From the NCBI GenBank assembly GCA_965287045.1, contig OZ336903.1:1054001-1118000 (forward strand): a DNA stretch of 64,000 nucleotides, read 5' to 3'. This DNA comes from Carcharhinus amblyrhynchos. Lineage: Eukaryota. This document shows positions 1,816 through 41,400 of this stretch, piece after piece (the stretch's first letter is position 1; each line of letters starts with the position of its first letter). A program made the position numbers and the translations under genes. Below the pieces are notes generated by a model. The model did no database searches. It had not been told where the DNA came from and saw only the letters and a list, made by a program, of their open reading frames with translations.

Positions 1816-4800
1816 GTAATCGTCCTCCAAGTTCATATCTGACATTTCACTGCACTAATCCATCCAACTGAATGATAAATCCCGGAGACTACTTCAGTGT
1901 CTTTGTATTCAATGATTCGGTTCAATGTCTGCCTGTCAGTTGCGAAGGAAAATGTTCTTGCGATGTTTTCACGTAAATGTTTAAGTTCTGCTCCCTAATT
2001 TAGAAATTAGATCCCCGAGGAGCAGGGTGAGAGGCAAAGATTTCCCACTGCCGTATGGAAATAAATGTTTACTTCTCTAGTTACCAGCCAGCGCTGAAAT
2101 GCAGTGCAATATGAAGCCCTTCCACCCCCGGTGTATTAGGGTTCCGCCGTAAATTCGCCGCATCTCATAGCCCCGGGAAGGGCTGGAGACGACCTGACTG
2201 TCCAATTCAGCCGGTTGCAGCAGGGTGAACCACCGGGTTCGACACTGGTGGCAGATATCGAATCCATGCTAGGATCAGGATTCCACTATATTGGTCCCGG
2301 CTGTATGGTGGACCGCGGACCATAACAGCCCTGAGTTGTACAGATTGAATCAAGTAAGCACCCATCGACACTCCTGCCTGACACAGCCGAATGATGTTTC
2401 CAACTTCCAACTGATTTGCGGATGTTTCCCACTGTCAATCCATATTCCCGCTTCCACTTGCAATGTCTCAGGGGGAGGTACTGGAAGCGGATACGACAGT
2501 GACGTTTAAGGGGCGTCTTGATAAGTAAATAAACAGGGTGGGAATAGAGGAATATGGTCCCCAGAGCGGTAGGGGTTTTTAGTTAAGTCGGGCAGTGAGG
2601 TCGGTACAGGCGAGGAGGGCGGAAGGGCCTGTTCCTGCGCTGTCAATGTCTTTGTTCGTTCTTTATTTCATGTTATCCCTGTGTTTATTGAGATTGTAGA
2701 CACACTCCTTACTTGGCTTGATTCCTATCTGACCTGCTGCATCAGCTGGCCAATAACTGTTGGTTTATTTCTGTACTTTACAGAGGCAGTGAAGCTGAGA
2801 CTGGCGAATGGGCAGAGTCGGTGCGCTGGAAGAGTGGAGATTCACTACAGGGGACAGTGGGGCACTGTGCTTGATCTTGGCTGGGACCAGCGGGACGCCG
2901 ATGTTGTGTGTGGGGAGCTGGGCTGCGGGACCGCGCTCTCTGCACCAGGCGAGGCTCACTTTGGGGAAGGATCCGGACCCATTGTGACGGCAGGTGTTGA
3001 GTGCGAAGGGACCGAGACCGCCCTGCGGGAATGTCCCTCAGAACCATGGAGTGATTCTCAGTACTTGCACTTGCCGCACTCCTATGATGCCGGTGTGATT
3101 TGCTCAGGTAAAAAATAAATCCATCATCTACAGCCTGCTTTCCGGGAAAGGGTGGATTCAGTTAGATAGGGGTCATGGGTAGAGAGGTGGACTGGTGGTG
3201 TTAAGATGGCGGCGCGGGCTCGTTGGGCCGAAGGGCCTGTTTCCCGGGCTGATTTTGTTCTTTGTTCTAAGTATTCTGAGACTGTACACTGTCGTAAAGA
3301 GACTGGTGAATAATTTTAATATTCTATAAATAGATTTGTTGTTACATTAATAACAGCGAATGGGAATGGGTGAAGAGGATCAGAGATTCCAGTTGGACCA
3401 TAGAAATTGTGAACATTTTGAGTAAATATTGAAATGTTATCCCACAATCCTGGCAATGAGAACAACGTAAGTGGAAGTTGTGCGATATTGTTTGTGAAGA
3501 GTTAATAAGGATACCTGAGGATTGTTTGCATTGGAAATTGTGACGTTTAGTGCTGAGTGCGAAGGGACCGAGACCGCCCTGCGGGAATGTCGCTCTGCTC
3601 CATGGGTTCAAGATTTCTACTCTCTCCTTCCGCACTCCAATGATGCCGGGGTGATTTGCTCAGGTAAAAAAAAAGTCCATCATCTGCAGCCTGCTCTCCG
3701 GGAAAGGGCGGATAAAGTATTCTGAGACTGTACACAGTCGTAAATAGAGTGGCGATTAACTTTAATATTCTGAAAATAGAGTGTTGTTACATTAACACCA
3801 GGATTTAAGTTTATAATAAAGTAACAACAATGAGAGTGATTAACAATTACCACAACCGTGCACAGGCCCGCTGTGCCCTTGAGCTGAGCGCTTGCTGTTA
3901 GCTATGTTCAGGAGAGGAGTTGTTCACTCCTGGTTCCTCACTGTTCAGTTCCGATCATCATTCAACAAATAATGAATCATTCCAGGGCCACACAGAGCAA
4001 ATCCTGGACAACAATCAGGCTTCTGCTGAGCAACCGTTTATCTTCATCTATCCGCAGCGTTTGGTTTATTCTGAAATTTTAACTTAAATTCAAATCGTCC
4101 GATTCTAAATGTTTTTTTTTCCTTCAAAGTCCAGAAATTGTACCCACAAATGTGCTGCCCATTGTGGTTCGAACCCCAGAGATACGGCCGGAGGCATCCC
4201 GACCCCCAACCCATCGAAATCTCCACCGCCACCCCTCCCCCAATGCCTCATCCGACACAACCACACGCCTGGAGACATAGGCGGATCTGTCAGCAACAAC
4301 GGGGGTGTGGGGGTGGGGGGGGGGGGTGCGGCGGACAGACCTGGGAGGAGACCGAGAAAGCGTCCCGGGCGTACTAATCTGTCCCAATTTTGCCTGTGCA
4401 GAGTCAAAATTTCAGGCATGCTTTGATGGGCTGGCTGTGAACGGAATTACATTTAAGGGGAGTCCGGATCATTCGGCACTCCGTGAGAATTGGCGGCTGT
4501 CTCTGAATTAAATCCGGGTGTCTCGGTCCATGTGTTTGACATTTACTGACTATTGATTGCGGAGGCCATAGAGCGCTTATCCAGTCACTGCGGCTACTTT
4601 CAGAGCAGCAATCAGTGGGCAGATTGAAGGTGTTCCAAGAGCGGAGTGAGGATGAGAAGGGTCTGGAGGAGAGTCTTGCGCACTGGAAACTTCCCTCTAT
4701 TCTTCCCTCGCCACTAATTCCGCCACAGCTGCTGAATTGTTCCAACATTATCTGATTTTGTGTGAGAGGGGACTGGCTGGATATCCCCTGTCTCTCCAGG

Positions 4801-7800
4801 CGTGTTGTTTTAATAACTGTCATGTAAATCCTCTTCCCAAAATGTTTGAACCTACTTGGAAACTTATCTCCCTCTCACACCCTAAATCTGATGAACACCA
4901 GCTGTTCCTGTATGATTTCCACTCGTGTTATATTTTTTTTCGGACGGAGTTTACCTTTAGAGTCTGTCAGGGAGAGAAATCAGAAATGTTATTGGTGGAG
5001 TGTTCCGTTGTATCTGAATAAATTGTGCTGGAGCAATTAGTTCAGGAGGTTGTATTTTAAACAAATGTGCGGCAGTCCATACTTTCTCCAGAATAAAATG
5101 AAGGGAGATGAGTTGTTTTAATATTTAAAGCTGCTGCAGCTTCAGGCAGATTTCACAAAGAGTAAACTGATAGAAGGAGATGTTGTCTAGTCTCAGTAAC
5201 CAGTAGCCCGGGACACTCTCACTGGACTGTTTTCCAGAACAGGAGATTCTTTCAAGGTTGCATTTCCCTGAATTGTTTATCGCATTCCAGATATGGACTG
5301 AGCAAAGTTACTGAAACTTGAAGCAGAAACTCTCCCCCTTCACATTCTCACTGCCCAAATGGAAATGCTAAAATCCCTGTGGATACTTGATTACGTTTTC
5401 CATCTGGCCTTAATGTATTAGCCACCTGTGCACATGGACTCTCAATAAGAACTCGAATGTTGTTTGCTCATCACCATTTAAACATTCGGAAATCCATCGT
5501 TTTATTTCTGGTTGAAATCGTTTGAGAACGTTCATTCTCAACACGTTTCAGCGCCAACAGAGAAACAAAATCAACTCGATCATTTTGGTGTCTATCAGTT
5601 AGAAAGCCTCTGGGCAAATTAAACCCATTTTCTTTCGATTCATGTTCGCCTGCTGCACATGGGGGTAGTTCCCATCAGCAGGCGCTAGGGGGCGATCATA
5701 CCCAGATTTCTCCAGATAAACCAGCAGTCCGTTCAGTTTATGGGCGGATGGTGAATAATGTTCCAGATGAATCGCTGTAAGACTGAACACGGCTTCTGAA
5801 GAGAATAATAGTGGACACATGTTGAACTGATGAAAGAGATTGAATTATTAAGTTGAACGAACTGCCCCCTTGTTCCAGTAAATGGGCCCGAGTGCACCCA
5901 CAGGAACGATGCCAATGTGATTTTGCATTGAAGCGTCATTTATCACATTAATTCGTTTTCACTTAGTAATTTGGCACTTTTGGGAAATGGATTTCTGTGG
6001 CTGTACAAATATGGAAGTTTTTTTGAATCGCTAAAAAAAGTGTTTCTTTTGACTGCAGTGAGGAAATTAATTAAGTCGGTGTGTTTTTCTGATCTGAAAC
6101 AGGAAACACTGAACCCCGGCTGGTTGGTGGAAATGACAGGTGCTCCGGGCGGGTGGAAGTGCTGCATGGAGAACACTGGGGGACGCTCTGTGATGTTTAC
6201 TTTGGTTTCCAAGATGCCAGTGTGGTCTGTGAGCATCTTCAGTGTGGAGTGGTAGAGAAAATCCTGAGAGGAGCAGCCTTTGGGAAAGGAAATGGGACAA
6301 TATGGAAGGAAAACTACAGATGCCACGGAAGTGAGTCCCGGTTGGGGGAGTGTCCGGTTTCATCAGTGGAAGAGTTTAACTGTTCACATGAAAATGATGC
6401 CAGTGTCATTTGCTCGGGTGAGTCCTCACAATGCAGTCACTCAGAGAACTACAACACTTGGGTGTAGTAAACAAAAAAATCCATTCGACCCGTGAGCCTG
6501 CGCAGAATTATTGGAAATGAACCTCACCCAGTCACAATCCATGAATATCCTCACAGATTTGTATTATTTTTCACTTCACATAATTGTTCAATTCTCGAAA
6601 AAGTTTTGATTGTCCTTCACCCACTATAAACTCACACAATTCATGTTCAAACCTAACCACTTACTACAGCTGATTTCAATTCGGTCACTATTGGTATTTT
6701 GGGAGTTATCTTTAACGTCCCCCGCTCCCTTCCCACATCTTTCCCGCTCTTTGTACCTCCACCAGTGACAGCACTTTCCTCGATACACTTTTTTTTGCAG
6801 AACCCTCGGGATTTTGAAGTCGCCATGGAACCTGGAGGTCAAAACAAAACCCATCCGAATTACATTGAGTAACTCGCCCGAGTCCAGACTAGTTTTATCC
6901 CTTTCTCCTTTCTTTTATATCGATCCTGATATAAGCCTATTTATGACACTGATAAATAAACTTAACACTTACCACATTGCGACATACGGGTGTTCTGTAT
7001 GTGCAAACTCGCTGCTTTGATTAATATATTTCAGAAGTAACTGTAATTCTCGCAATGTCCATTGATGACTATTCCGGGCTTTGGGACATCCTGCGGCTGT
7101 GAAAAAGCTTCGCGGAAAATAGTCGTTGCCTCCTTCCCGCCAGTATGAGTCAATTCCCATTTTCCGGCATCAGGTGACGCTGCCATTTGCCTGTGCACAC
7201 CACCAGCGCGGCATTTGAAAATTGTAATCCTGCCCATCACACCACAGTCAATGTCCTTAACATATCTCAGGTACAACAGATGTTCACAGATTCCCCTAAG
7301 GAAGCCACATTAACAGATCGAATGACTATTCCCTGTCAAAGGCCCAATTTCACACTTGGGTAGACATTACCCTTCCATTTCATTGACGCGAACTTACCAG
7401 TGAAGCCTCGAACGTGGCCTTTCTTTGGAAAACTATCTGTACAACCGTATCCTTCCTACCATTATTAACTTCCCCCTTTGATTTCCCCGAATATAAAACA
7501 TGAGGAAGCTTCTGAAACATGTTTTCTTTTTCCTAAAAAATATCTCGTTGGTGCTCTAAATAGTTAACATCTTAAAAAGTGTCCTTTTGTGTATCAAATT
7601 CTCATTTCAAACAAATTATCGCACTGCCAGAATAACCTCTGTCCCTGCTTTGATGGGTTGCAGCATATCCCAGCATGCCCAGATAAACTTTCACAGAATA
7701 GTTTCCCAATTTGCCGGAAATGAATGTCCAACCTCTAGCACTATCTCCTCAGAACAGAACATAAGAACATAAGAACATAAGAAATAGGAGCAGGAGTAGG

Positions 7801-10800
7801 CCAACTAGCCCTTCGAGCCTGCCCCGCCATTCAATAAGATCATGGCTGATCTGTCGTGGCTCAATTCCACATTCCCGCCCTCTCCCCATAACCCTTAATC
7901 CCCCCTCTTATCAAAAACCCATCAACCCGCGTCTTAAAAATATTTAGCGAGGTAGCCTCCACCACTTCAACGGGCAGAGAATTCCAGAGATTCACCACCC
8001 TTTGAGTGAAGAAGTTCCTCCTCAACTCCGTTCTAAACCGCCCCACCCCCCTTTATCTTGAGGCTGTGCCCCCTAGTCCTACTATCCTTTCTGAGCTGGA
8101 AGAGTCTCTCCACCACTATCCTATCCATCCCATTCATCATCTTATACGTCTCAATGAGATCTCCCCTCATTCTTCTAAACTCTAACGAGTACAAGCCTAA
8201 AATATTCAGCCTCTCCTCATAGCTCAACCCCCTCAACTCCGGCATCAGCCTAGTAAACCTCCTCTGCACTCCCTCCAAGGCCAAAATATCCTTGCGCAAG
8301 TATGGCGCCCAAAACTGCACACAGTACTCCAGCTGCGGCCTCACCAATGCCCTATACAGCCGCAGCAAGACCTCCCTACTTTTATATTCAATCCCCCTCG
8401 CTATGAAGGCCAGCATCCCATTCGCCTTCCTGACCACCTGCTGCACCTGCAAGCTGGGTTTTTGCGACTCATGCACAAGGACCCCGAGGTCCCTCTGCAC
8501 TGTCGCCTGCTGCAGTTTTTCGCCACGTAAGTAATCATCCTTCCTACCATTATTCCTACCAAAGTGGACCACCTCGCACTTGCCAACATTAAATTCCATT
8601 TGCCTTTTCCTGGCCCATTCGCCCAGCCTATCTAGATCCTTCTGTAGACTCTCCCCACCCTCCGCACAATTTGCCGTTCCACCAATCTTGGTATCATCAG
8701 CAAATTTCGACACCCTACACTCGGTTCCCTCCTCCAGATCATCTATATAAATGGTAAATAGCTGAGGCCCCTGCACCGACCCCTGGGGCACTCCACTAGT
8801 CACCAACCGCCAATCCGAATAGCACCCATTGACCCCCACTCTCTGCCTCCTATTTGACAACCAGTCCTCTATCCACGCTAACACCCTACCCCCAACTCCA
8901 TGCCCCCTGATCTTCTGCAATATCCTCTTGTGAGGTACCTTGTCAAACGCCTTCTGAAAATCAAGAAAGACCACATCCACCGGCTCACCTTTATCCACCG
9001 CCCTAGACACATCCTCATAGAACTCCAGTAAATTTGTCAGACACGACTTCCCTTTAACGAAACCGTGCTGCGTCTGCTCTATCAAGCAGTTCCCCTGAAG
9101 ATGCCTTGCTACTTCCTCCTTGATGACGGATTCTAGCATTTTACCTACAACAGACGTTAAACTAACCGGCCTATAATTCCCTGCCTTTTGCCTGGCACCC
9201 TTCTTAAACAACGGCGTAACATTAGCCTTTTTCCAATTTCCCGACACTTCCCCGGAATCCAGCGACGTCTGGAAAATAACCACCAAGACATCCACTCCCA
9301 CCTCCGCCATTTCTTTCAGGACCCTCGGATGTATTCCATCCGGTCCTGGGGACTTGTCCACAATCAGCCCCTCCAGTCTGGCGAGCACCGCCTCTCTAGT
9401 AACAGTAATGTCATCGAGACCCTCCAGTCCTACCACCTTTCCATCGCTAACACCCGGCAAATTATTCACGTCCTCCTCCGTGAAGACAGAAACAAAAAAG
9501 TTATTCAAGACCTCAGCCATATCCCCATCCCCTACCACTAAGTCCCCTTTCTCATCCTCTAAGGGACCAACGTTCACCCTAGCCAGCCTCTTCCTTTTTA
9601 TATATTTATAAAAACTCTTGCTATCCTTTTTTATATTAAGCGCTAGCCCAGCTTCATAGTTTCTCCTACCCTTCTTTATCAACTTCTTTGTCAATCTTTG
9701 TTGACATTTAAACCTCTCCCAACCCTCTTCTCGCCCACTACTCTTAGCTACTCTAAACGCCTCCGCTTTTAATTTAACACTTTCCTTCACCTCCTTCGTT
9801 ATCCACGGCTCAGCTGGATAATCACCCATTATCTCCCATTTAAATCACTCACTAACACGTGGTACTGGATTAATGAGGATGTTTCGACATTTGTCCGCCC
9901 AAATGCCCGTCCATCCCTGCGTTCTGCAAACATATAATGCCGCTTTGCTGAACAATGCATTTATTTTCGATCCAGAGCCGGAGTTCTGGTTGTTCATCCT
10001 CCTGCCTGACTGTGCTGAACCGCCTCTCAGGAATATCCTTCACCTTTTAACAAACAGAAATGTACTGGTGAAAGGTGACCTCAATACGGGTTAATTTGCT
10101 GCACTGGAACCACTGCTCTCAATGTCTTTCTTCGCCTAGATGAAAACTGGTCACTGAGATTGATGAATGGGGGAAGTCGGTGTGATGGGCGAGTGGAGAT
10201 TTACTACAACCACAGCTGGGGCAGAGTGCAGGACAGCCTCTGGGATCTGAATGACGCTAATGTGGCCTGTAGACAGCTGGGCTGCGGCGAAGCGGTAACC
10301 GCCTATAACAATTCAAAGTACGGAGAGGGTGAAGGGCTTGTGTGGGTGAATGATGTCCAGTGTGAAGGAAACGAATCGCATCTCCGGAAGTGCAGCACAT
10401 TCTCATTGAACCCGGATCGCAGTGATAGCATCGGCGTGGGGGTTCTGTGCTCAGGTGAATAAACAGGTCACTTTTTCTTGAAACGTTAAGGGAAAAAGAA
10501 TGTAATCTTGGTCATCTGGAGAATATACTTCAGTTCTTCCTCGGGAACACACAGCTGAGATAGTTCACACTGGGGCTTGGATGCAGGACAGGACACCCTG
10601 GGAAGGAAGCAAAAAAAATAATAGTTTGGAATATGATGACAATAACACTTTAATAAAATTATTTATCAATTTTATCAATCTCCAGGTAACTTTCCTCAGT
10701 GAATTGAGACCAACATACTAAAGAAGCATCGGCAATGGGGACTAATGTGCTAATCGGTGGGGTGGGTTTCAGCAACACAACATTGGGAGAGAGGGTCACG

Positions 10801-13800
10801 TTTCAGAAAGGGGATTGCAATCTTGTGTCCCAGTCAGTAACACACCGACTGTTGAATAAGGATGAAAAAGGGTTTGCTGCATAAATGTCAGATGGGAAGG
10901 AAAGCGATATCTGAGTTCAAGTTAATTTATTATTAACAAATAAGACTAATATTAACACTGAAATGAAGTAACAGTGAAATTCTCCGAGTCGCCACAGTCC
11001 ACCGCCTGCTCGGTTCCATACACATCTTTCAGAATATGGACGTAACCAGAACACTGAGAGAAAACCTATGCAGACACGGAGAGAATGTACAAATTCCATA
11101 GAGACCCTGACCTCAGCCAAAATCGAACGCGGGTCCCTGACGTTGCGTAGCTAACCACTGTGCGGACTGGACAGTGAATGGAAACTGATTATCATGATCT
11201 CCAGGGGTAGTGGGACTGATTATGATGGAGCAGTGAGCAGTAGTGGAGAGCATGGGTATCTCTGAACATGACCATGGTATTTTGAAACTTATTTGTATTG
11301 ACGGAAGAGAGTCCAATGCAAATCAAGTTGCCAAGTCCGCTGGTTCTGTTGGTCAGTAAGGGGGAAGAGGAGAACATGGAAAGGGAGGGGGTGTGTGTGC
11401 GGTTTTGTGTGTGCACTGGTCACTGCTGGTGTGTGGGAATGTGCAGGGTTTGTTTAGAAACGCTTTGATTGTTTTGGAGGGATTGATTTGAAATCTGCAT
11501 TCTTGAAATAACAAGGAACTGATGAACATTTTAGCAGTAAATTGGACTAGTTCGCAAGAAAGGGCACTGTCTGAAAGGTCAACCGACTGTCAGCCGACCT
11601 ATATGTTTGCAGTATTTCTGATTTGTACTGACATATATCTATATATATGTGTGAACTGTTGAAATGTCTGATGAAGGTTCCATGGCAAAATGAAGTAGTG
11701 AAAAGCAAAGAATCAAATGTCTGCCTCAAACATTCTGTGTGGAACAACTAATTAACACAATTTCATAATTGACGGTAAAGCAAAACAGGCAGTAATGAGT
11801 GGGTCAGAACCGAACAGAAAACGGCCGGACTATGTTATTGTTGGAAATATGGATATCTAGGAGATTTGTAAACGCCACATCATTTACTTTACCTCGCAGC
11901 AGAAACTGTTTTCTCTCGAGCGTTTATTAATGTCCCTCTCAACGGCTGTTAAAATACGGGCTTTAAATGATCTGGAAGTGATATCATAGTGTGAATTTAG
12001 CAACGAGGTGAATATGTTTAAGAAATATAATCTGTCTCTTTCATTATTCCATTAGAACACAAACAGTTAAGGCTCTCTGGCGGCGGAAGCCGATGTGCGG
12101 GCCGACTGGAGATTTATCACAATGGGATCTGGGGCTCAGTTTGTGATGATTCCTGGGATCTGACAGACGCAGACGTGGTTTGCAAGCAGCTGGGTTGTGG
12201 ACATGCATTGCGGCTTCCTCTTCCTGCTTCGGCTGGACCTGACTCACAGCCAATTTGGTTGGATGAGCTGGAATGCACCGGGAATGAAACATTTCTCTGG
12301 GAATGTCCCCATGCATTGTGGGGTAAACACGACTGCATTCATAAAGAAGATGTGAAGATCATGTGCTCTGGTAACTGTCCCAACTTCAGTTACATTAGAA
12401 GTTTCATATATAAGATATGTTCCTGATTTACCAAAGGACGGCGCTTACGAATGCTTCTATGTCAAATCCCTCTCTATTATTTATTCTGGACATCATTACC
12501 GTTACATTATTTCTATATCCTACTTTTGACGTGTTGCCTTATGTTACTTTATACCTCATTTCCTGAGATAAATGCGTTTTCCAATTAATATCACTGACTA
12601 TTATGAACACGAGTCTTAAATTTCATCAGTTTATGTGTAAAATGTTCCGGATTACTACATTATTTTGCAAAGATGTTTGACGTAATCAATTATTTCTCGA
12701 GAAACGCGCTGTCACTTTATTCTTCACATCAAAATGCGCCCTATTCCATTGAGCAGTTGGAAAACTAAGTTGTCATTGCCATGTGTACCTTGCCATATAT
12801 TAGCATTGTGACACACGCTTTGCAGTCCTCTTTCGTACTAACTATACAAGCCAGTTTGCTGCCGCAATAGACGTTCTTTTTTTTCACTGTCGAATACAAC
12901 ATCCAGCTGGCTTATGTCACTCTCAAGGGTCAGGGACCACAGAAGCAATCGGTGTGAACCTCACACCGGAAGTTTTGCTACATAAGAAACGAGAAACTTT
13001 GCAAAAGCTCTTTAAATCCACTTTTATCCTGATTGCCTGGTTTCCCAATGCCTTTCGTGAGCTTTCACTGTGGGAACTTGTTGATGCTCTGCTGGTAATC
13101 CACGGACAGAGCTTCTAAAACATTGTCCCTTTCACCATTGCTGCAAGCTTTGCAAATAAATCAATCGGGCCCAGCGTTCAAATGTTTCGATCGAAATTCA
13201 ATGTTGCTTATTTTTGATTATGTTTTTTTTCTGTGACCTTTACGAAATAATTATTACAAACTATGACCTCAACTTAGACAAATCCACAGTGTTAGAATCA
13301 GAGTTGATAATTGCACCACGTGATTATTTATGATTTGATTGACAGAGCACAAAGAGCTGCGTTTGGTGAACGGAAAGCATCGCTGTGAGGGCCGAGTGGA
13401 AGTGCTCTATAATGGGACCTGGGGAACAGTTTGCGCTGTAAACATGGATTCAGATGATGGAGCAGTGATCTGTAAACAGTTAGGTTGTGGCACAATCGTT
13501 TCCATCGACTATTATGCTCGTTCATTCGGAGTAGGATCCGGACCGATTTGGTTGGATGAGATGAAATGCCTTTCACACGAGTCGACACTTTGGCAGTGCC
13601 AGGCAGACCCGTGGGGTCAACACGACTGTGATCATTGGGGCAATGCAGGTGTCGTTTGTTCAGGTAACACAATCAATCATTCTGCTTACAGGTGTGATTT
13701 GAAATATTGATGTAGCTCATGGAGTCAACATATTTGTCTTATCAACAGAGCGAGGGACACCGAAGCAAGAGCAGGAAACTGTGAAAAGCTGCAAGCGAGA

Positions 13801-22831: not shown

Positions 22832-22857
22832 ATTAAATAAAGATTAGGGCGAATAAA
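22832..22857 (+). terminator. Gene A polyadenylation signals
   Basis: ATTAAATAAA (AATAAA 22836-22841) and a second AATAAA at 22852-22857; the first is conserved in gene B. Confidence 0.65.
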
Positions 22858-23770: not shown

Positions 23771-23779
23771 GTGAAAGGA

Positions 23780-24740: not shown

Positions 24741-24982
24741 CAAGATGGCCGCCTGCTGTCTCCCCTGGCAACGCAAGATGGCCGCCTGCCGTCTGCCCTG
24801 GCAATGCAAGATGGCCGCCTGCCGTCCCCCTGGCAACGCAAGACGGCCGCCTGCCGTCTCCCTGGCAACGTAAGATGGCCGCCGGCCGTCTCCCCTGGCA
24901 ACGCAAGATGGCCGCCTGCCATCTCCCCTGGTAACGCAAGATGGCCGCCGGCTGACTCTTCCAGCAATACAAGATGGCCGCC
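24741..24982. repeat. 32-33 bp GC-rich minisatellite, 7 full units plus 1 partial
   Basis: Unit caagatggccgcctgccgtctcccctggcaacg starting at 24741, 24774, 24807, 24839, 24871, 24904, 24937, 24970. Confidence 0.95.
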
Positions 24983-25095
24983 AGCGATGGGTCTCCCTGC
25001 AGCCCATTGTCCAGATTGTCCCCGGTGGATGTGGTGGGGATGGTGCAGCAGATGGAGCAACAATCTCAGTTTCAATGGGGGGAAGAAGCTGCAAT

Positions 25096-25112
25096 GCTGC
25101 CCCCTGGTGTAC
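25096..25112 (-). promoter_or_regulatory. CTCF-like motif
   Basis: Reverse complement GTACACCAGGGGGCAGC resembles the CTCF core CCACCAGGGGGC(G/A); motif match only. Confidence 0.4.
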
Positions 25113-25295
25113 ACTCCTCTCCTGTCTCTGCATTGCAGAGTGTTTAAAGCCAGAGAGTGAATTGTCAGCGCAGCACCTTGACCCCAGGGATCAAACTACC
25201 CCCACTTAAAACCATCAAATCCTGACAGTGCATGGACTCTGCATCGACAGGGCATCTTATCCGATTCCCCTCCCCTCACACAGTTACCCTCTGAT

Positions 25296-25472
25296 CCCCC
25301 CTAACCCACACATCTTTGGAATGTGGGAGGAAACCGGAGCACCCAAAAGAAACCCACGCAGTCACGGTGAGAATGTGCAATCTCCGCACAGACAGTGACC
25401 CAAGGCTGGAACCGAACTCGGGTCCCTGGTGTTGTGAGGCAGCAGCGCTAAACACTGTGTCACCGTACTGTC
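25296..25472 (-). mobile_element. tRNA-derived SINE (HE1/V-SINE-like)
   Basis: Reverse complement gacagtacggtgacacagtgtttagcgctgctgcctcacaacaccagggacccgagttcg... Confidence 0.8.
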
Positions 25473-26060
25473 ACTCCGGGAAATGCATTTGTGTTGAACA
25501 TGGGGCGGGCGGGGGGATTTCTCACTCACTTTGATTATTGGAGGGGGGATGGGTATCAGAGTAAGTCAGCGTTGCCTCAATATCCTCACCTTTCCTCTTG
25601 TTTCTTATTTAAAAATAACTCATTCCTCCACCTGGCCCAGCGAGAGGGCTAACAGAAAGCAGAGAAAAAGTCACGACATGGAAAGAGGCCATTCAGCCCA
25701 TCACATTCTCACCAGCTGGAGAAATATAAACTAGCATTCCATTCTAATCCCACCTTCTAGTGACCCAGTCCCCAGCCCGATCTTTACAGGTTACAACATT
25801 TCAGCCGCAGATCTGGGGGCCGATCTTTGGATCCGAGGAGTTTCTGTCTGGACCACCAGTTTAAACACGAATTCCAGACACCCACTACTCTCTGAGTGAA
25901 AACCTTCTTCCTAATGTCCCCTCTAATCCTCCCAGTAATTCCCATTCAATATTTGTAAACCCCACTCCCCCAGTAAATGTCCTCTCTCTGCCTCCGTGAC
26001 GATTTACAATATACTAAATGAAGAAAACGGAATCAAACCATGTATTTATCTGCTCTAATC

Positions 26061-26070
26061 TTTATTTAAT
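26061..26070 (-). terminator. Gene B polyadenylation signal
   Basis: ATTAAATAAA on the minus strand, homologous to gene A 22832-22841. Confidence 0.65.
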
Positions 26071-26426
26071 GACATAAGAAGGAAAGGCTTTATAAAATAA
26101 ACTTCAAATCCATTTGACAAAAAAAACGCATCAAATCTTGAATGATAATAACGGCTCCGTTCCACAATGCAATGCGATGTAACCGCTTTAATATGGACAG
26201 TACAATACTCGATACACATTTTAGGTTGTTTTTCATTGTTGCTTGAACAAAACGTTTACTCTTTCACGCGGAACAATGACAGAAATGAGAATTCACAAAA
26301 CGCAACATGAAGTAATAACCTATTGATACAAAAAAAAACAATATTTTATCTGGGAGTAAAGCATATTCGACATGGCGATATTTGTGGAAAAGTTAAGGGG
26401 CGCCCCCTGTCATTTAATCCCATGAT

Positions 26427-26473
26427 TCATATGTCTGAGGACGTCACATCCTGTATTTGTTGATGACTATGAC
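26427..26473 (-). CDS. Gene B terminal coding exon ([15 protein letters not shown])
   Basis: Homolog of 22435-22481. Confidence 0.8.
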
Positions 26474-29400: not shown

Positions 29401-32400
29401 TTATATTTATTTATTTTTTGTCTTTTTTTCAGTCCAAAAACGGTTTCAAAATTGCCCATTTTAGCAAAATAATCTATTGTACTCCATGTATTTTCCCAAA
29501 TTCTATTCTGTCCTGTTAATTGGACGCTGTGTCTGCGGTCAGCAGTGACGTATTAAATTGATTTACATATTCAATGAAATGTTTTCCTTATTATTATTTC
29601 GATCAAACTTTGATGTGTGCAAGGTACAAAGCAGTTGGAAATTGGAAACAACAGCTCAGCTCGCTCTATTTACACAGAAGGTAAAAAATATTCTTGAACA
29701 ATAATGAGCATTGATTATCTAATCAGTATGCAAATACTCTGAAGCTAAATAAGGACATTTAACATGTCTCCGTTCTACATGAGGACAGTGAGGTTAATAC
29801 TTCTCTTGGCCATGGCTATGGGGGGGAGGGCGGGGGGGTAAACATGAAGCGGCATTTTTGCAGTGTAGCTACGGTTTCTAAAGAAAAACACCAACCTGAA
29901 GCACGAGACTGAGTGTGCAGGTCGTCGGGAGGAATATCATCTATTTCTTCATAAATGGCTTGGTCTATAACAGAAGGTGGATCCCAGCTCCCCGCGACAG
30001 GTTCTGTTGGAGAATGGTCGGGATTGTTACATTCTGGAACAATATTTCTCTTTTTTTTATTGATTACATATCTCATTCGATGTCGAGGTTAGATTCAAAG
30101 AGGGGCCTCGCGGAATTTATCTTGTTTCTCTGCATCATGAATCCAGTGATAATACCACTGCCTCCATCACAAGCAACACTGAGGCATTTAGCGACCAGTG
30201 GAGATCAGCGCATAAAATATGAATCAAGATAATTTGGTGCGAGTTCAGATACAGGTAGTCGTACTGTTTATCCATTCAAAACTAGTTGTACGAATGTCAG
30301 ATTTTCACCAGACTCTCTGGCCATGCGTCAATATGGCCGCTAAGCAGAGGGGCGTCACTCCATACCAAACAGGCCTGAATATCTCCCGTTCTCACCGCAT
30401 TACATTATTGCCTTGGAAGGATTTTACAGGAAGTTTTGACACTTTTTATTGGTAAAAAGTCTTGGGACCAAGGGTGAAACATCTGACTCAGAGAGGAGGA
30501 GGCCACGCACATTACCACCGGCATAGATTATGTAGTATTAGAGAGGTAGTTTTTTTTTTCTCTCTGGGATGCAGTGTTGGCACTGGTGATAGCCTCAAAA
30601 TGGGTCGAGTACTTTTCGAGAACTTGACACGGCAAAAAAAAACTGAGTGTTGGTTTGAAACCAATTGTAAGTAGAAACAAAATGTCAGTTGCTAAATAAT
30701 TAATGAATACATTGGAACATAGAAATTAGGAGGAACATAGGAATTAGCAGTGAGATTGGACAATTCCGCCTTTTAAGGCTGCTCCCCCATTCTATCTGAT
30801 CATGGTCGATCTTATCTTGTTCTCAAAACCAAAAGCATCCCTGCTCCATTTGAGCTTTATTCAGCTTTCATTGATATACATATGTATTTCTTTCCTGAAT
30901 GTGCTAACTGATCAATCTGCTGACTGATTCTGTCTCGCCTGCACTCTGGACAATCGTTCCACAGGTTCCCAACACTCTGAGAGAAATTGTCCCTCTCCTC
31001 AGATTTGGAACTCCTCCGTCTCACTCTAAATCTACGAGCTTTTGTTGTAGAATCTCCAACAAAGGAGAATATCTGCTCAACATCCACTTCAACAATCCCT
31101 TTAGAGTCTTATATACCTCCGTCAGATCCGTCCCCCCGCCCAATTCTTTTAAGCTTCATGAGTACAAACCCAAGCTATTCAAATGCTCCTCGTATGGTAG
31201 ACCTTTCTTCCCTGGAATCAATATGATGAACACTCTCGGAACTGTCTCCAGTGTCACCACATCCTTCATCAGGTATGGAGAATAAATCTGGACACAACAT
31301 TCCAGGTGTGGTCTCACCACGGCCTTATCCAGTGTTAACATTTCTTTATATTTAAAATCCTGTCCTTTTGCAATAAATGCCAATATTCAATATGCCTTTC
31401 TTACTCAACATTGCAATTTCAGGTTTCCGTTCTGTCATTTCTGCACAAGGATACCCAGATCCCTCTGTACTGACACACTTTGAATATGCTTCCCATAAAA
31501 ATAATCATTTAACTTTATTTTTCTGGAGAAAATGGATGGCCACACAGGTATCCACATTCAGCTCCATTTGTCACATTCTGGCCCATTCTCCAAGCCTGTC
31601 AATATTCATCTGTAAACCCTATAAACTCAAGGGTGCCTGCTTTCCCAGTCATCTTAACATCATCCGCGAATCTTGCAATGTTGCACTCTGGCCCGAATCA
31701 CATGTCGTTATGTCGGTTGTGAATAATAGAGAACTGAATCTTGCGTCATCCCTCGTATTACATTTCCCTCACTCCCCACCCTATGCTTTCTCTCTCTCAA
31801 CTAGTCCCCTATCCGAGCAAATATTCTGTGCCCAGCACCTGGTATTTAAAATTCTTGTCTAATGCATTCCCGAATCCCGATACGCCAATTCCACGTGATT
31901 CCCATCGACCACCTGTCTGTTAAATCCTCAAAAAATCTAGCAAGTTTGTCAAACACAACCTGTCCTTCATGAAAATCGTGCGGACCCCGGTGAATTTCGT
32001 TTTGTTTTCCATTTATTAGTTATCTCCTGCCTAATGACTGACTCCAGCAACTTCCCACCACTGAGGTCAAAGGAAGTGGTCTATAGTTTGCCACTTTTTG
32101 AGTTTTTTTTTGAATAAGGGTTTCATATTGATGTGTTTCCAATCTATTGGCATCTTTCCTGAACCGAGGAAAAAATGCCATAATATTTCTAATTCACCCA
32201 CTATCTCTGTTGCCATCTCCTTTAATACTAGAGAATTCAGATCATCAGAGTTCAATTTGATGAATTTAACTTCTTAATCTGTTGCATCAATAATAAATCC
32301 CATTTCGTATCTTATAAACTGGTGGATGGAGCAGGAATATAATTGTAGATAACTCCCTTACTTATATATAGTATTTTACTGTTTCTCATGTGGCTTGAAA

Positions 32401-35400
32401 TAGATTACTGACCAATAATCAGTTAATTTGTTTTTGAAATTTATTCAAGTCATTCTATGTAAATCGGCAGAGAAGCCCCTCCGATGGATGAAGCAACATC
32501 CATGACTCAGCGTGGGTTCAGGGATATGATTCGGGCCTTACCTTTTATTGATGATCTTCTCTGCATTACTGCCAAAAGGGCGATTAACTCACAGATCAAC
32601 AGGACACCGAGTGATATGCAGATCACCAGAGGGATGGAGGTGCTTTCATCGTCATTTCCTTGATGAAAGATTCAAGGAAGTTTGTGAGATAAAGTGTCCA
32701 CAATGTTTTAAATGCTTACATGATTATCAAACACTCAGACTGTCGGTAGAAATTTACAAAAAAAGGCAATACAAATGTGTCACAACTATTAATCTTAATG
32801 TAAAATGAGCCGTAACAGTGATTGATATTTATTACTGAGACATACCTGAAGGTGTGGGCGGAACAGTCGGAGATAACTCCGGACCTGATGAAGATACGGT
32901 AAAAGGGAGACAATTATTTGCATTGTTGGTCAGAAAGACATTTAAAAACATTAATTAACTTCAGCAAAAATGGGCCGAACAACGTCACACAGTCCCAAAC
33001 CACACCACTCAATTGGACACTTACCGGAACAAATCACACTGGCATCTTCCTTGTGATCACAGTCAGACTGAGCTAATGATGAAGGACAGTCAAACAGAAA
33101 GGATTCACTTCCGGTGCACTTCACCTCATCCAGCCAGATAGTACCGGTACCCTGCCCAAAAGCGGCCCCTCCTGTGGCCTCGAGAGCAGAGCCACAGCCC
33201 AGCTGTCTGCAGACAACACTGGCATCGTTCATATCCCAGGAATCATCACACACCGTGCCCCAGGCTCTATTACACCATATCTCCACTCTCCCGGAGCAGC
33301 TATTGTTACCTCCAGCCAAACGCAAACTTTGTCCTGGATTTGTTAAAGATAATAAATAAATTATTAACCTTGACGTAGCACAAGAGAGGAATACAATCAG
33401 ATAACTGGTTTATTAAAGTTGGCAAAACACCTGATCCTCTCTTGCAGCTGTTCACAGTTTCCTGCTCTTGCTTCGGTGTCCCTCGCTCTGTTGATAAGAC
33501 AAACATGTTGACTCCATGAGCTGCATCAATATTTCAAATGTAAGCAGAATGATTGACTGTGTTACCTGAACAAACGACTCCTGCATCTTCCCAATGATCA
33601 CAGTTGTGTTGACCCCACGGTTCTGCCTGGCACTGCCAAAGGGTCGACTCATGTGAATGGCATTCCATCTCATCCAACCAAATCGGTCCGGATCCTACTC
33701 CGAATGAACGAGCGTCATAATCGATGGAAACAAGAGTGCCGCAATCTAACTGTTTACAGATCACCGCTCCAACATCTAAATCCAGCTTTTCAGCGCAAAC
33801 TGTTCCCCAGGACCCATTATAGAACACTTCCACTCTGCCCTCACAGCGATGCTTTCCATTCACCAAACGCAGCTCTTTGTGCTCTGTCAAACAAATCATA
33901 AATAATCACGCGATTCAAATATCAATTCTGTATCCACGCACTATATGTCTAAGTTGTGTTCACTGTTCGCTTAATTATTGCATAAAGGTCACATAAAAAC
34001 AGACACAATCAAAAATAAGCAACACTGAGTTTCAGTCGAAACATTTGAACGATGAACCCGATTTATTTATTCGCACAGCTTGCAGCAATGGTGAATTGGG
34101 CAATGCTACAGATGCTCTGTGCACGGATTACCAACGGAGCTTCAAGAATTTCCCTGAGTGAAAGCCCACGAATGACAATGTGGAACAGGGCAATCAAGAT
34201 AAAAGTGGATTAAAATAAATGTTGTAAAATTTCTCGTTACTTCAGTGGCAGAACTTTCGGTGCGACGAAAAAGAACGTCTATTGTGGCAGCAAACTGGCT
34301 TGTATAGTTAATACTAAAGAGAACTGCAAAGTATGTATCAAAATGCTAATACATGGCAGGATACACACGCCAATGACAACTTAGTTTTCGTACTGCTCAG
34401 TGGAATGGAGCGAATTTTGATGCGAAGAATAAAGTGACAGCATACTTCTTGAGAAATAAGTGATTAAATCAAATATTTTTGCAAAATAATATAGTTATCC
34501 GGAACATTTCACACATAAACTGATGAAATTTAAAGCTTGTGACCGTAATAGTCAGTGATATTAATTTGAAGATACATTTATGTCAGGAAATGAGGGATAA
34601 AGAAACATAAGGGAACACATCAAAAGTAGGCTATAGAAATATTGTAACGGGAATGATGTCCAGAATAAATAACACAGACAGGGATTTGACAGAAGAGCAT
34701 TTGAAAGGGCCGTCCTTAGGTATATCAGGAACATATCTTATATATGAAACTTCTAATGTAACTGAACTTGGGGCAGTTACCAGAGCACATGATCTTCACA
34801 TCTTCTTTATGATTACAGTCGTGTTTACCCCACAATGCATGGGGACATTCCCAGAGAAATGATTCACTCCCGGAACATTCCAGCTCATCCAACCAAATTT
34901 GCTGTGAGTCAGGTCCAGCCAAAGCAGGAAGAGGAAGTCGCAATGCATGTCCACAACCCAGCTGCTTGCAAACCACGTCAGCGTCTGTCAGATCCCAGGA
35001 ATCATCACAAACTGAGCCCCAGATCCCATTGTGATAAATCTCCAGTCGGCCCGCACATCGGCTTCCACCGCCAGAGAGTCTTAACTGCTTGTGTTCTAAT
35101 GGAATAATGACATAGACGGATTATATTTATTAAACATATTCATCTCTTTACTAAAGCCAAACTATTGTATATTTTGCAGCTAAATTAAAACCTGGATTTT
35201 AACTGCCGTTGACTGGGACATTAATTTACCCTCTAGAAAAAAGAAAGTTTCTTTTCAGTGGTAAAATATGCAAGTTGCTAGCTGCGAATTGACATTTCAG
35301 ACAGTGACCTTTCCTGAGAACTCACACAAGTTGCTGCTAAAATGGTCATCAGTTCCTTGTTATCTCTCAAGAATGCAAGTTTCAAATCTACCCTCATGGC

Positions 35401-38400
35401 GGCCCTTCCAAAAGACTGGAATGTTATCGAAACTATTCTCAATGAACCGTGCATATTCCAACTCAGCAGCAGCGAACAGCGCACGCTCAAAGCCGCACCC
35501 ACACCCAATCCCCTTCCTTTCCCTCTTCCTGACCAACAGCCCCACCAGCACTGGTTATTTGATCTTCATTGGATTGTCTGCCGTCAATACAAATTAGCTT
35601 CAACATATCATGGTCATTTTCATAGATATCTACGCTCTCCACTATTGACCACCATTTGATCACTACCCCTCGCGATCGTGATAATCAGCGTCCATGAGTC
35701 TAATCAACAAAGTAGCACAATGGTTGGCACTGCTGCTTCGCAATGCCAGGGATCTGGGTTCGCCTTTCTTCATCCTTATTCAACAATCGTTATGTTAGTG
35801 TCTGGGACACAAGATTACAATCCCCTTCGTAAACGAGACTGTCCCTTCGTTGTGCTGTTGAAAGCCACCCCACTGATCAACACATTAGCCCCTATTGCTA
35901 ATACTGTCTTTAGCTGTGTTGGTCTCAATTTACTGAAGGGAATTACCTAGAGATTTATAAAGTTGTTAACTTTAAAAAAAAATGATACTGTCATCATATT
36001 CCAAACTATTAAGATTTTTTCTTTCTTCCTGGAACATTTTGTCCTACATCCAAGCACGATTGTCAAATATGTCACGAGCATGCTCCCGAAGAGGACGTGA
36101 AGTATATTCCCTAATGACCAAGATTATATATAGTCCCTTTCGTTTCTGGAAAAGTGACCTGTTTATTCACCTGAGCACAGAATCCCTACGCCGAGGCTGT
36201 CACTGCGATGCGGGTTCAATGAGAATGTGCTGCACTTCCGGAGATGCGATTCGGTTCCTTCACACCGGACATCATTCACCCACACAGGCCCTTCACCCTC
36301 TCCGTACTTTGAATTGTTATAGGTGGTTACCGCTTCGCCGCAGCCCAGCCGTCTACAGGTCACATTAGCGTCATTCAGATCCCAGAGGCTGTCCTGCACT
36401 CTGCCCCAGCTGTGGTTGTAGTAAATCTCCACTCGCCCATCACACCGACTTTCCCCATTCATCAATCTCAGTGACCAGTTTTCATCTAGGCGAAGAAAGA
36501 CAAGGAGAATAATGGTTACAGTGCAGCAAATTATATCAAATTGATACATCTCTCACCAGGCCAGCTCCCCCGATGCAGAGGTGAAGGATGTGGTGAGAGG
36601 CTGCTGAGCACAGTCAGACAGGAGGCTGAACAGCCACCGTGGCTGCTCTGAATCTGAAGCAAATATATTGATAGACAGAGGGATATAATATGTTTATGGA
36701 ATTCGAGGATGGGCCAACATTTGGGCGGTCAAATATAGAAATATCCTCTTTAACCCCAGCACCACTTGTTTTCATTATCTTGATTTAGGGACTCACCCGT
36801 GCAGATGACACTGACGTCATTTCCATGTGAGCAGTTAAACTCTTCCACGGATGAAACCGGACACTCCCACAACCGGGACTCGTTCCCGCGGCAGTTGTAG
36901 TTCTCCTTCCATATTGTCCCATTTCCCTCCCCAAAGGCTGCACCTCTCAGGATTTTCTCTACCGCTCCACACTGAAGATGCTCACAGACCACACTGGCGT
37001 CTTCTAAACCAAAGTAAACATCACAGAGCGTCCCCCAGTGTTCTCCATGCAGCACTTCCACCCGGCCGGAGCACCTGTCCTTTCCACCAACCAATCTCGG
37101 CCCATGGTTTCCTGTTTCAGGGACAAACACAGGACCAACGAATTAGTACATCAAAATTAGAAGAACACAAGCCAGTTCTTTTTTGTGTGTAAATGGGAAG
37201 ACAGAGTTTACATCTGCATCCACAATCATAGCCCAGTATTCACAAATGATCACATCGAACTAATTAACATAATATGTGCTAGTTTTCGGAAGGTGCTTCA
37301 ACCCGAAGTGAACAGTCGATCCTGAAGAGAAAAGCTAATGCGCCATTGGCACAATATATTGTCTTTGGAGAGTGTCTCGTATATTTTTTTACATAATGTG
37401 CACAGAGTTTAAGCATTGCGTTGGGATGCAATTATAAAACGATATCCTCAGGAGCAATAAGGTAAGAAAAAAATGGCAAGTGCACCACCAAATTAGACAG
37501 AATCTGGGACCGGTTAATTCAGAAAATAAATGTCGTTCGAAAAATTCCTGTGTCATTCTGAAGTTCATGCGCATTATCGGCACGTTCTCCATGCTTTGAA
37601 ATCTCCTCTACACATGAATATAAGATTCCAACTGAAAGCTGGTGAGTAGATGTAAAACAAGCGCTTGCAATGCTGTTACTGAGCTCACCAATTATTTTGT
37701 TTGATGCAAGATATTTGAAATATAAAACCATTTATTCTGCTGCATCAATATCCTCTGTAGAATGCAAGCACTGTTATGCTCTGTGATCGTCCATGCAGTG
37801 GGTTCATGGCTTGGGAGACAGAGCACGAATGTGTAACAGCTTCATTAAAAAAAAACTCAAATGTTTAGGAGTAACACATGAAATTGGTCAAGGTATAAAT
37901 CAGCAATAATAATCTGCTAATTTCAGAACATGACATTTTTTAATTTGAAATGATAATCCAAAATTACAACAAATGACATGAAAAATGAAGGCCTGGTTAT
38001 TTACCTCCATGCTCGAGAGAAACAGAACTGTCATACCTACTTTGGTGCAATATTAATATTTTTTTCTCTCTAATATTCACAGACTGCACTCACCGGAACA
38101 GATCACACTGACATCGTTGCTGTGGGTGCACTCGGACTGACTGACAGGAACATGTGGGCAGTCCGTCAGGCCTGTCTCGCCACCTTCACATTCAAATCTT
38201 TCGTTCCATATAATTCCCGCGCCCTCTCCAAAATAAGCCCCTCTTCTAATGGAAATGGCGACTCCACACTGCAGCTCAGCACAGATCACTCTGGCGGTAT
38301 TCCAATCCAAGTCACGGTCACACACTGTACCAGATTCTATATCGTTATGGATCTCCAGTCTGCCGGAACATGTGGAAGGCCCGGATACTAGTTTTGGAAA

Positions 38401-41400
38401 TCTGTGGGCTGAACAACAACAAATCACAAAACACTAATTATTAAAAAAAAACTCACAACTGGTTAATTACATTATGTCATGAATGGTTCTGAATCTCTTT
38501 CCACTCAGTTGCCCCTTAATCTAAAGATGCATCGTACAGGGGAATTTTCGAGATGAAAAAGTGGGCTACGACCAGAGTTGGATGCACCATCGGTGACACT
38601 CAGCGGCTGAATGGCCTTCTTCTGCATTAACAAATTGTATAATTATAGGTCTTTCATCAAATTCAATCCATGTCAGTGTTGATTCTCTCCAGGAGACGTG
38701 TTCAGTCTCACAGCGGTTCCTTTGGAACACCCTTCCCCATTCCCCCTTTAATTAAATCAACTTCTGGTTTATCACAACAAATTCTAAATAAAGCTGCCCC
38801 CTATCGCCTGGGGATGGAGAATATCAGAATGTGCAACAAGCGGACCTCAATCAATAACATATGGAATTCTTTGCACAGGGACAGACTCACTGCTAGACAT
38901 CATACAAAAACAACATTCTTTATTGTTTTTCGGCGCTGAAACGTGTTGAGAATGGACGTTCTGAAATTGCTTCAAGCAGAACTGAAACGATGCATCCCAG
39001 AATGTCTAAATGGGGATTAGCAAACAACACTTGAGCTTTACTGAGGGTCCACTTGCACAGATCACTAAACCAAAAAGGCCAGATGCAAAATGTAACCAAA
39101 ATCCGAAGGAATTTTAGCGTTTCTATTTAGAGGGCTAGAATATGAAGTTGCGGGGGTGGGGGGGTGGGTGGGTTTCTGCTTCAAGTTTCAAAAATATTGT
39201 TCAGTCCATTTTTTTAAATGACAAATTCTTTACGTAAACTGGTAGAGTGTAGATAAGAAAAAGCAAACCATTGATTATATGATTTAATTATGTTGCAAGC
39301 ATTTCCTGTTCTGGAAAATATTCCACTGGGAATGTCCCAGACTACTGGTTACCGAGCCTGGGTCTAGACAACATCTCCTTCTATCAGCTTACACTGTGTG
39401 AAATCTGCCTGAAGCTGCAGCAGGTTAAATATTAAAACAACTAATCTTCCTTCATTTTATTCTGGAGAAAATATCGACTACCGCACATTTATTTATAATA
39501 CAACCTCCTGAACAAATTGATCCAGCACAATTTATTCAAATACAACAGAACACTCCACCAATAACATTTCTGATTTCTCTCCCTGACAGACTCTAATAGT
39601 AATTAGCACGCGTGGAAATCATGTAGGGACAAGTGGGATTCATCAGATTCAGGGAGTGAGAGGGAGATAAGTTTCCAAATGGTATCAAACAATTTGAGAA
39701 GAAGATTTACATGACAGTTATTAAAACAAGACGCCTGGAGAGACAGGGGATATCCAGCCAGTCCCCTCTCACACAAAATCAGAAAATGTTGCAACAATTC
39801 AGCAGCTGTGGCAGGAATCGTGGCGAGGGAAGAATAGAGGGAAGTTTCCAGTCCGCATGACTCTCCTCCAGACCCTTCCCATCCTCACTCCGCTCTTGGA
39901 ACACCTTCAATCTGCCCACTGATTGCTGCTCTGAAAGTAGCCGCAGTGACTGGATAAGCGCTCTATGGCCTCCGCAATCAATAGTCAGTAAATGTCAAAC
40001 ACATGGACAGAGACACCCGGATTTAATTCAGAGACAGCCGCCAATTCTGACGGAGTGCCGAATGATCCGGACTCCCCTTAAATGTACCTCTGTACACAGC
40101 CAGCCGATCAATGCATGCCTGATCTTTGGACTCCACTCAGGCAAGATCGGGACACCTGAGCACGCTAGGACGTCCCTCGACCACCTCCACCCTCCTCCTT
40201 CTCCACGAGCCTGTCCGCGCCCCGCCCCTTCCCCCACTTCCCCCCTCTCCCGCACCCCCACCGTGTTTGCTGTCAAGCCTGTCTGTGTGTCCAGGCGTGT
40301 GGTTATGTCGGTTGAGGCATTCGGGGAGGGGTGTTCGTGGAGATCTCGAAGGTTTGGAGGATGGGGATTTTCGTCTGAGCGAACAACTTCTGGACCCCGA
40401 TGCAAAACAACAAGCATTAACAATTGGACGATTTGGAGTTAAGTTAAAATAGCAAAAAAAAAACGCTGCGGATAGATGAAGATAAACGGTTGTTCAGCAG
40501 AAGCCTAATTGTTGTCCAGGGTTTGCTCTGTGTGACCCTGGAATGCTTCACTATTTGTTGAATGGTGATCGGAACTGAACAGTGAGGAACCAGGAGCGAA
40601 CAACTCCTCTCCTGAACATAGCTAACAGCAAGCGCTCAGCTCAAGGACACAGCGGGCCTGTGCACTGTTGTGGTAATTGTTAATCACTCTATTAATTCAG
40701 GAATCATAGAATGCTACCGTGTAGAAAGAGGCCATTCGGTGCATCGAGTCTGCACCAACCACAACCCCACCCAGGCCCCATCCTTATATCCCTACATATT
40801 TACCCATTAGTTTATCTAATCATTGCATCCCGAGACACTCAGGGTAACTTAGAAAGGTTAATCAACCTTGCCCGCACATTTTTGGACTCTCATTGCTATG
40901 ACATTATTAGAAACGTAAATCCTGGTGTTAATGTAACAGCACTTCTGTTTTCAGAACAGTTAAATTATTCACCACTCTCTTTACCGTCTCAGAATATTTT
41001 ACCCGCCGTTTCCCGGAGAGCAGGCTGTAGATGGTGGAAAGATTTTTTTTTTACCTGAGCAAATCACGCTGGCATCACGGGAATGCAAATAGCCATAGTA
41101 AGGGTCGTAGCGATGGTCCACCCATGGATCTGAGCGACATTCCCGCAGGGCGGTCTCGGTCCCTTCGCACTGAACATCCGACGCCACAATGGGTCCGGAT
41201 CCTCCCCCAAAGTGACCCTCGCCTGGTGCAGAGAGCGCGGTCCCGCAGCCCAGCTCCCCACACACAACATCGGCGTCCCGCTGGTCCCAGCCAAGATCAA
41301 ACGCAGTCCCCCACTGTCCCCTGTAGTGAATCTCCACTCTCCCAGCGCACCGACTCTGCCCATTCGCCAGTCTCAGCTTCACCACCTCTGGAAAATGTAG

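Follow-up and report, generated by a model that had tools for sequence, protein, structure and literature searches.

A 64,000-nt stretch of the genome of the shark Carcharhinus amblyrhynchos (the window; positions 1054001-1118000 of contig OZ336903.1, here C34) contains two paralogous genes in inverted orientation, gene A on the forward and gene B on the reverse strand, which encode SRCR (scavenger receptor cysteine-rich) domains set in rows and numbered D1 to D7. We consider it likely that these are two of 23 germline CD163-family receptors whose D1 domain carries selected diversity, and that the family works in the manner of WC1, with D1 predicted to bind microbes. Coordinates are window positions unless marked C34.

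A search with D1 returned 36 full exons at 74-100% identity, all within C34:0.16-2.05 Mb, and among the 150 of 421 candidates that were scored the next matches were at most 64% identical. The corresponding search with D4 gave 23 exons at ≥88%, and transmembrane (TM) exons are present in 23 genes. Gene mapping, which like the scan for recombination signal sequences (RSS) covered 1.04 Mb of the ∼1.9 Mb cluster region, placed 23 genes and one orphan composed of leader, micro-exon and D1. The genes share a layout of leader, micro-exon, one to three D1 exons, two b/c-type domains, an n-type domain, a domain in the d position, e, d′, TM segment and a tyrosine-containing tail; four of them lack D2. 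AG/GT splice sites flank all 36 full D1 exons, and YEEI is encoded in each of the 22 gene-linked first cytoplasmic exons found, one of the 23 genes giving no match to that exon. The domains have the SRCR fold, match Pfam PF00530, occupy one exon each and contain six to eight cysteines, as in group B SRCR proteins of the CD163 family, and e and d′ domains directly precede the TM segment as they do in that family. In a quick 144-row tree D2 and D3 grouped with b/c domains (support 99), D4 with the six-cysteine n-position domain of birds and turtle (96), D6 with e (95) and D7 with d′ (90); D5 was not resolved as d in this tree and grouped with d domains in two others. The cluster genes are CD163-family type I membrane receptors. 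Haplotype duplication was rejected as the source of the copy number, because duplicated blocks in the cluster are mostly only 95-98.6% identical, with a single one at 99.5%. A 27-kb inverted duplicate (C34:157548-184566 and 2026325-2053331, 97.1%) contains a whole three-D1 gene.

All 36 full D1 exons encode six cysteines; position C2 and the C7 stretch are without cysteine in every one. Their C6-C8 loop occurs in 32 distinct forms and five lengths and has a mean pairwise identity of 0.44, compared with 0.84 for the remainder of D1. The same loop in D2-D7 has an identity of 0.79-0.91 and a single length, apart from a one-residue indel in D7. Thirty distinct loop regions were counted among the 31 non-redundant D1 domains of this one genome, and tyrosine accounts for 17.8% of their loop residues (43 of 242).

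A preliminary description of the window had reported three loop versions held between fixed anchors. The loops at 3050-3076, 3606-3632 and 41086-41121 translate exactly as claimed, both intact D1 exons of the window lack C2 and C7, and the near-identical framework (95.5% nucleotide identity between the two, codons 2-83) and the clustering of differences were confirmed, 19 of the 23 differing alignment columns falling within, or next to, three patches (columns 28-29, 68-72 and 84-104). The 3606-3632 loop, however, does not represent a third working domain, because it belongs to a 3′-half fragment (3537-3663) without a 5′ half or a splice acceptor. The proposed anchors PW and HSxDA also gave way: only W is fixed, whereas the P in front of it and the second residue behind H are under positive selection. 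The wider proposals, namely that this cartilaginous fish has a germline multigene family of receptors, that the loop is far more variable than its equivalents in the other domains and that there is positive selection, were all borne out by the cluster. D1 is likewise the distal domain, since leader and micro-exon peptide immediately precede it in named shark and skate proteins, as they do in gene B.

Selection was tested on the 31 D1 sequences left after removal of five copies at ≥98% identity. Model M2a assigned an omega of 6.9 to 17.5% of D1 sites, with likelihood-ratio test (LRT) statistics of 298 (M1a/M2a), 302 (M7/M8) and 293 (M8a/M8). For D2 to D7, in order, the M1a/M2a statistics were 12.7, 16.5, 11.2, 7.5, 1.3 and 10.4. 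The D1 value was 243 after removal of the 13 loop columns, 57, 74 and 46 in three segments each analysed with its own tree, and 144 and 117 in two subsamples of 16 sequences. Posterior probabilities exceeded 0.95 at 16 D1 columns (29, 31, 32; 69, 70, 74; 86, 87, 89, 91-93, 98-100; 104). Given these tests, with D2-D7 as controls, the variation of D1 is beyond chance. The distance at fourfold degenerate sites is only 0.069 in D1 compared with 0.209, or threefold, in D6, which carries no selection signal; D1 is therefore not simply older.

The AlphaFold model of D1, built from an input of 85 mixed SRCR rows, adopts a confident SRCR fold (predicted local distance difference test score 92.5, loop block 68) and matches the SRCR domains of DMBT1 with a TM-score of 0.90. 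In DMBT1 SRCR8 the exposed cation ligands are D1019, D1020, E1086, D1058, D1059 and N1081, D1023 and D1026 form a buried site, and mutation of the exposed site abolished ligand binding (available text of PMC7043408). The DMBT1 ligand spacings of 39, 23 and 5 fit columns 30, 69, 99 and 104 of the shortest D1. Mapped by this offset, columns 31, 69, 70, 99 and 104, all positively selected, would be five of the six exposed ligand positions, and columns 29 and 100 would be the lost C2 and C7. Equivalents of the buried-site aspartates are each kept in 29 of 31 D1 domains. At the exposed positions D1 mostly has Ser, Tyr, Asn, Arg or Gly instead; Glu and Gln are absent at the E1086 equivalent, where 3 of 31 have Asp, and at the D1058 equivalent 1 of 31 has Asp. 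As the selected columns coincide by offset with exposed DMBT1 ligand residues, the three variable patches likely form one face, the usual SRCR ligand face. The supposition that they share one surface thus stands as a mapping onto one known ligand face by residue offsets, not by model coordinates. Because five of the six side-chain ligand positions of DMBT1 sites 2 and 3 are selected and the buried site-1 aspartates are kept, the canonical cation-bridged face appears to have become a contact surface that is variable and rich in aromatic residues.

A reverse arms race would account equally well for the positive selection seen in an exposed distal domain: the receptors would have a single host ligand or function, and variation in D1 would serve to evade a pathogen or parasite that binds it, as in an evasion or decoy family. 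The orphan leader plus D1 and the presence of several broken genes favour such an origin. We nevertheless regard it as unlikely. The variation falls on what seems to be the ligand face and has removed its acidic cation ligands, which is hard to reconcile with one conserved host ligand; a single genome holds 30 distinct loop regions in 31 copies; and WC1, the nearest design, is reported to bind bacteria directly.

The preliminary description saw the loss of the C2-C7 disulfide as the cause of diversification. D4 lacks the bond in 23 of 23 copies, yet it is the most conserved domain (identity 0.94), and its loop, of one length, is only somewhat freer than its framework (0.83 versus 0.95). In a sister cluster of seven genes at C34:8.51-8.81 Mb all 20 D1-like domains have six cysteines and a loop of one length with an identity of 0.87. 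Since D4 and the sister cluster keep conserved loops without the bond, its loss is ruled out as a sufficient cause of hypervariability. C2/C7 loss has already been reported for CD163A domain 8 and CD163c-alpha domain 5 (PMC2906472, in the text available). In D1 the loss may permit loop insertions, which selection would then drive. Each sister-cluster gene contains, besides D3-D7 and a shortened SRCR-like exon, two or three tandem six-cysteine D1-like domains. At C3:137.86-138.2 Mb there are more CD163-like genes, whose domains have eight cysteines apart from an n-type one; they gave four D4-like matches.

Seven of the 23 genes have two or three D1 exons behind a single leader, mostly as micro-exon plus D1 units (leaders at C34:156465, 957266, 1308312, 1396802, 1454689, 1503952 and 2057218). 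All tandem D1 exons are phase 1, so any subset of them would be in frame; a skate model protein also has several tandem D1 domains. This arrangement, together with the IgM-type clusters within the same region, could point to a somatic or combinatorial system in which D1 serves as a V segment, either altered by AID or picked among tandem cassettes by splicing. We find this quite improbable. No RSS flanks any D1 in the 1.04 Mb scanned, where the three strict matches belong to Ig D segments, so that RSS-flanked variable segments of the kind found in somatically rearranging antigen receptors occur only at Ig loci. AID hotspots are not enriched in the variable patches (0.078 per base compared with 0.098 in the framework), the diversity is already present in the assembly, and that of cattle WC1 is reported to be germline. 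The diversity of D1 is germline, and the D1 array is probably an inherited library of microbe sensors that is not somatically rearranged.

Over 11 kb the orphan D1 at C34:1824013 and the gene at 453568 are 99.5% identical. Of the 52 differences between these copies, 24 are concentrated in the final third of D1 and the sequence right after it, and this divergent part matches the D1 and intron of gene A at 94%. The orphan D1 is a clear mosaic, or possibly an assembly artefact. The pairwise homoplasy index (PHI) test detected no general recombination signal in D1 (p 0.58; 0.12 without the selected codons) and we therefore claim just this one mosaic. New variants would be generated by duplication and point change, by indels in the loop and occasionally by crossover within D1. 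That the loop drifted under relaxed constraint after C2-C7 loss, with misalignment and gene conversion mimicking selection, is very improbable and largely refuted: the loop is hard to align, one D1 is a mosaic and other domains give weak positive tests, but the signal persists without the loop and in all three segments when each is given a separate tree, omega is 6.6-9.5 and thus far over 1, the PHI test is not significant, and D4 and the sister cluster show no such drift.

In the reading that we prefer, of a germline CD163-family array with selected D1 diversity, D1 would bind varied microbial ligands, the tail would signal through the YEEI tyrosine motif, and the receptors would probably be on lymphocytes. 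Several points weigh against it. These ligand and tissue roles are predictions. D6 matches D1 in overall divergence (mean identity 0.80 versus 0.79). The site models were run in our own GY94-type implementation with fixed branch proportions, naive empirical Bayes and five beta classes. D2, D3, D4, D5 and D7 pass p<0.05 weakly (LRT 7.5-16.5); with five of the six control domains passing, there is a weak family-wide background of selection and part of the signal is therefore shared. The single ligand face is an offset mapping rather than one of coordinates. At least 5 of the 23 genes are broken by a frameshift or stop codon in one of their SRCR or TM exons. Contigs of two sequencing runs cover the exons, break off where exons end and show D7 joined to TM, but both runs are RNA by guess only, are possibly one data set and may derive from a different species. 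In cattle, WC1 domains besides a1 are also reported to bind Leptospira, and D1 therefore need not be the sole binding domain.

Within the window gene B is complete, from its leader and 33-nt micro-exon through D1-D7 and the hinge to the TM and cytoplasmic exons. The leader of gene A lies beyond the window, near C34:1050.5 kb; this gene has lost D2 and has the extra 3′-half D1 fragment. The features are as follows.

1783..1815, + strand: gene A 33-nt micro-exon
2784..3107, + strand: gene A D1 exon, six-cysteine distal SRCR domain, variable loop 3050-3076
3537..3663, + strand: 3′-half D1 fragment, 5′ half and splice acceptor missing, loop 3606-3632
5857..5922, + strand: gene A remnant of the deleted D2 exon
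6103..6417, + strand: gene A D3 exon, b/c-type SRCR
10140..10454, + strand: gene A D4 exon, n-type, without C2-C7, conserved
12056..12370, + strand: gene A D5 exon, d position
13346..13663, + strand: gene A D6 exon, e-type
13903..14211, + strand: gene A D7 exon, d′-type
14576..14692, + strand: gene A transmembrane exon
16807..16914, + strand: gene A cytoplasmic exon, YEEI motif
19118..19228, + strand: gene A cytoplasmic exon 2
19710..19841, + strand: gene A cytoplasmic exon 3, YDDA motif
46844..46889, − strand: gene B leader (signal peptide) exon, RNA-like contig ends at the exon edge
42136..42168, − strand: gene B 33-nt micro-exon, same peptide before D1 in named shark and skate proteins
41055..41387, − strand: gene B D1 exon, six-cysteine distal SRCR domain, variable loop 41086-41121
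38094..38408, − strand: gene B D2 exon, b/c-type
36797..37111, − strand: gene B D3 exon, b/c-type
36171..36485, − strand: gene B D4 exon, n-type, six cysteines, conserved
34781..35095, − strand: gene B D5 exon
33566..33883, − strand: gene B D6 exon, e-type
33025..33333, − strand: gene B D7 exon, d′-type
32846..32884, − strand: gene B predicted Pro/Ser/Thr hinge exon
32542..32658, − strand: gene B transmembrane exon, D7-to-TM joint in RNA-like contigs
29896..30003, − strand: gene B cytoplasmic exon, YEEI motif
27764..27874, − strand: gene B cytoplasmic exon 2
27160..27291, − strand: gene B cytoplasmic exon 3, YDDV motif
26522..26640, − strand: gene B predicted last coding exon

The intron after D1 of gene B contains non-coding blocks (39750-40150 and 40450-40750) that are 92-98% conserved in ∼27-30 copies, matching the exons; these are possibly regulatory elements or repeats. 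A retroelement reverse-transcriptase open reading frame (ORF; PF00078, 8033-9844, − strand) lies inside the D3-D4 intron of gene A, and a single-exon ORF for a rhodopsin-family G-protein-coupled receptor (PF00001) lies at 61413-62357 (+ strand), with similar ORFs recurring between the receptor genes of the cluster. A tandem array of 25 copies of a 43-bp unit (49168-50241) is situated just upstream of the gene B leader and recurs in the cluster; another, of seven 33-bp units, occupies 24741-24982. Across the genome there are >100 IgM-type constant exons, in clusters. Scattered through the receptor cluster, at C34:1.8147-1.8217 Mb and 1.998-2.0045 Mb, are IgM-heavy-type clusters made up of V, RSS-flanked D, J and C exons, and further IgM-type C exons are found on C34 at 0.668, 0.706, 1.523, 1.763 and 2.075 Mb. 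In all, C34 has 7 such exons compared with ∼90 on C39, and the final C exon of one cluster lies ∼2 kb away from the orphan D1.

Among known systems cattle WC1 is alike in being a germline multigene array with a most variable distal domain, a six-cysteine a1 without C2/C7, the same patches and loop indels, and tail motifs YEE(I/L) and YDD(A/V). Published work describes a1 as the domain of WC1 that varies most, and reports its VR1/VR2, its indels, its germline diversity and its binding of Leptospira (PMC2681482, PMC3511184 and PMC5949365, in the text available); among the shark domains D1 likewise varies most and has both variable regions and indels. WC1 and CD163c-alpha are also marked by expression on gamma-delta T cells, co-signalling with the TCR and binding of bacteria, roles that the shark receptors may share. 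YEEI conforms to the Y-(Q/E)-(D/C/E)-(I/L) motif of WC1 and CD163c-alpha as defined in the available text of PMC2906472. The first domain lacks C2 and C7 in all eight Bos taurus-labelled WC1 proteins examined, and the best-scoring WC1 domain for D1 was bovine a1, narrowly (99.0 versus 96.3 bits). Against 85 distinct mammalian a domains of mixed species, chosen for lacking C2, the per-column entropy of D1 correlated with rho 0.57 over 104 columns and 0.33 over the 81 variable ones, and 6 of the top-15 columns were shared (p 0.008); this likeness of patches is one of column entropy, not of published VR1/VR2 positions.

In contrast to WC1, with its strict a-[b-c-d-e-d]-[b-c-d-e-d′] pattern without an n domain, the shark genes have a single b/c-b/c-n-d-e-d′ cassette and one to three tandem D1 domains. 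The C6-C8 spacing, with the two terminal cysteines counted, is 20-26 in shark D1 compared with 22-23 in six-cysteine mammalian a domains. D1 grouped with WC1 a domains at a support of 88 when the trait columns were included; without them, the approximately unbiased test gave p 0.52 for D1 with WC1 a and 0.51 for WC1 a with the bird domain. Given a cassette with an n domain and trees that fit one origin or two, we describe the shark receptors as WC1-like in working and do not class them as WC1 proper.

The closest named D1 matches are from Heterodontus (71%) and Cetorhinus (68%), and the six-cysteine D1 type is present in proteins of Heterodontus, Cetorhinus, Chiloscyllium, Stegostoma, Leucoraja, Rhinoraja, Pristis and Mobula, which group at 96. 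With this distal domain in named sharks, skates and rays, the WC1 strategy either goes back to the base of the jawed vertebrates or came about on two occasions, each with the same change in structure, and either origin bears on that of gamma-delta T-cell co-receptors. A bolder reading, which we hold to be doubtful, is that sharks and ruminants independently built the same SRCR paratope, each having lost C2-C7, taken apart the calcium site and made the surrounding face diverse, and that sharks use it as a second germline repertoire, not of Ig type, carried by T cells, with splicing selecting among tandem D1 cassettes. With a framework that hardly varies, the 31 distinct D1 variants single out ∼16 selected residues on the putative SRCR ligand face. 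They offer a direct means of testing how SRCR domains gain specificity.

The chicken and platypus WC1-CD163c-alpha hybrid (a-b-c-n-d-e-d′) described in the available text of PMC2906472 also forms an expanded family and has a near-identical domain order, including n. The first domains of the stork, owl, buzzard, turtle and coelacanth relatives examined differ, all five keeping eight cysteines (chicken genes lay outside this set). SCART1/2 (CD163c-alpha) are reported to share the n domain without C2-C7 and the Y-(Q/E)-(D/C/E)-(I/L) tail motif, but comprise one or two genes in most mammals and have m/l distal domains; our trees were built without SCART sequences. SRCR domains of DMBT1/SALSA, CD163A and MARCO have the same fold and, by offset, the same ligand face, and unlike shark D1 keep the acidic cation ligands. 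The earlier likening of the loop to Ig/TCR complementarity-determining region 3 holds as chemical likeness only: both are Tyr/Asp/Ser/Gly-rich and variable in length, whereas D1 has another fold and lacks V(D)J signals and junctional diversity. Among the titles listed for the literature searched, to which subscription papers did not belong, none described a shark WC1-like array; the available main text of PMC2906472 traces such arrays to birds and monotremes and does not mention 'fish' or 'shark'. The novelty that had been claimed is accordingly divided, bovine a1 lacking C2-C7 and varying at the same columns: the design is known from WC1, and the lineage and layout are new.

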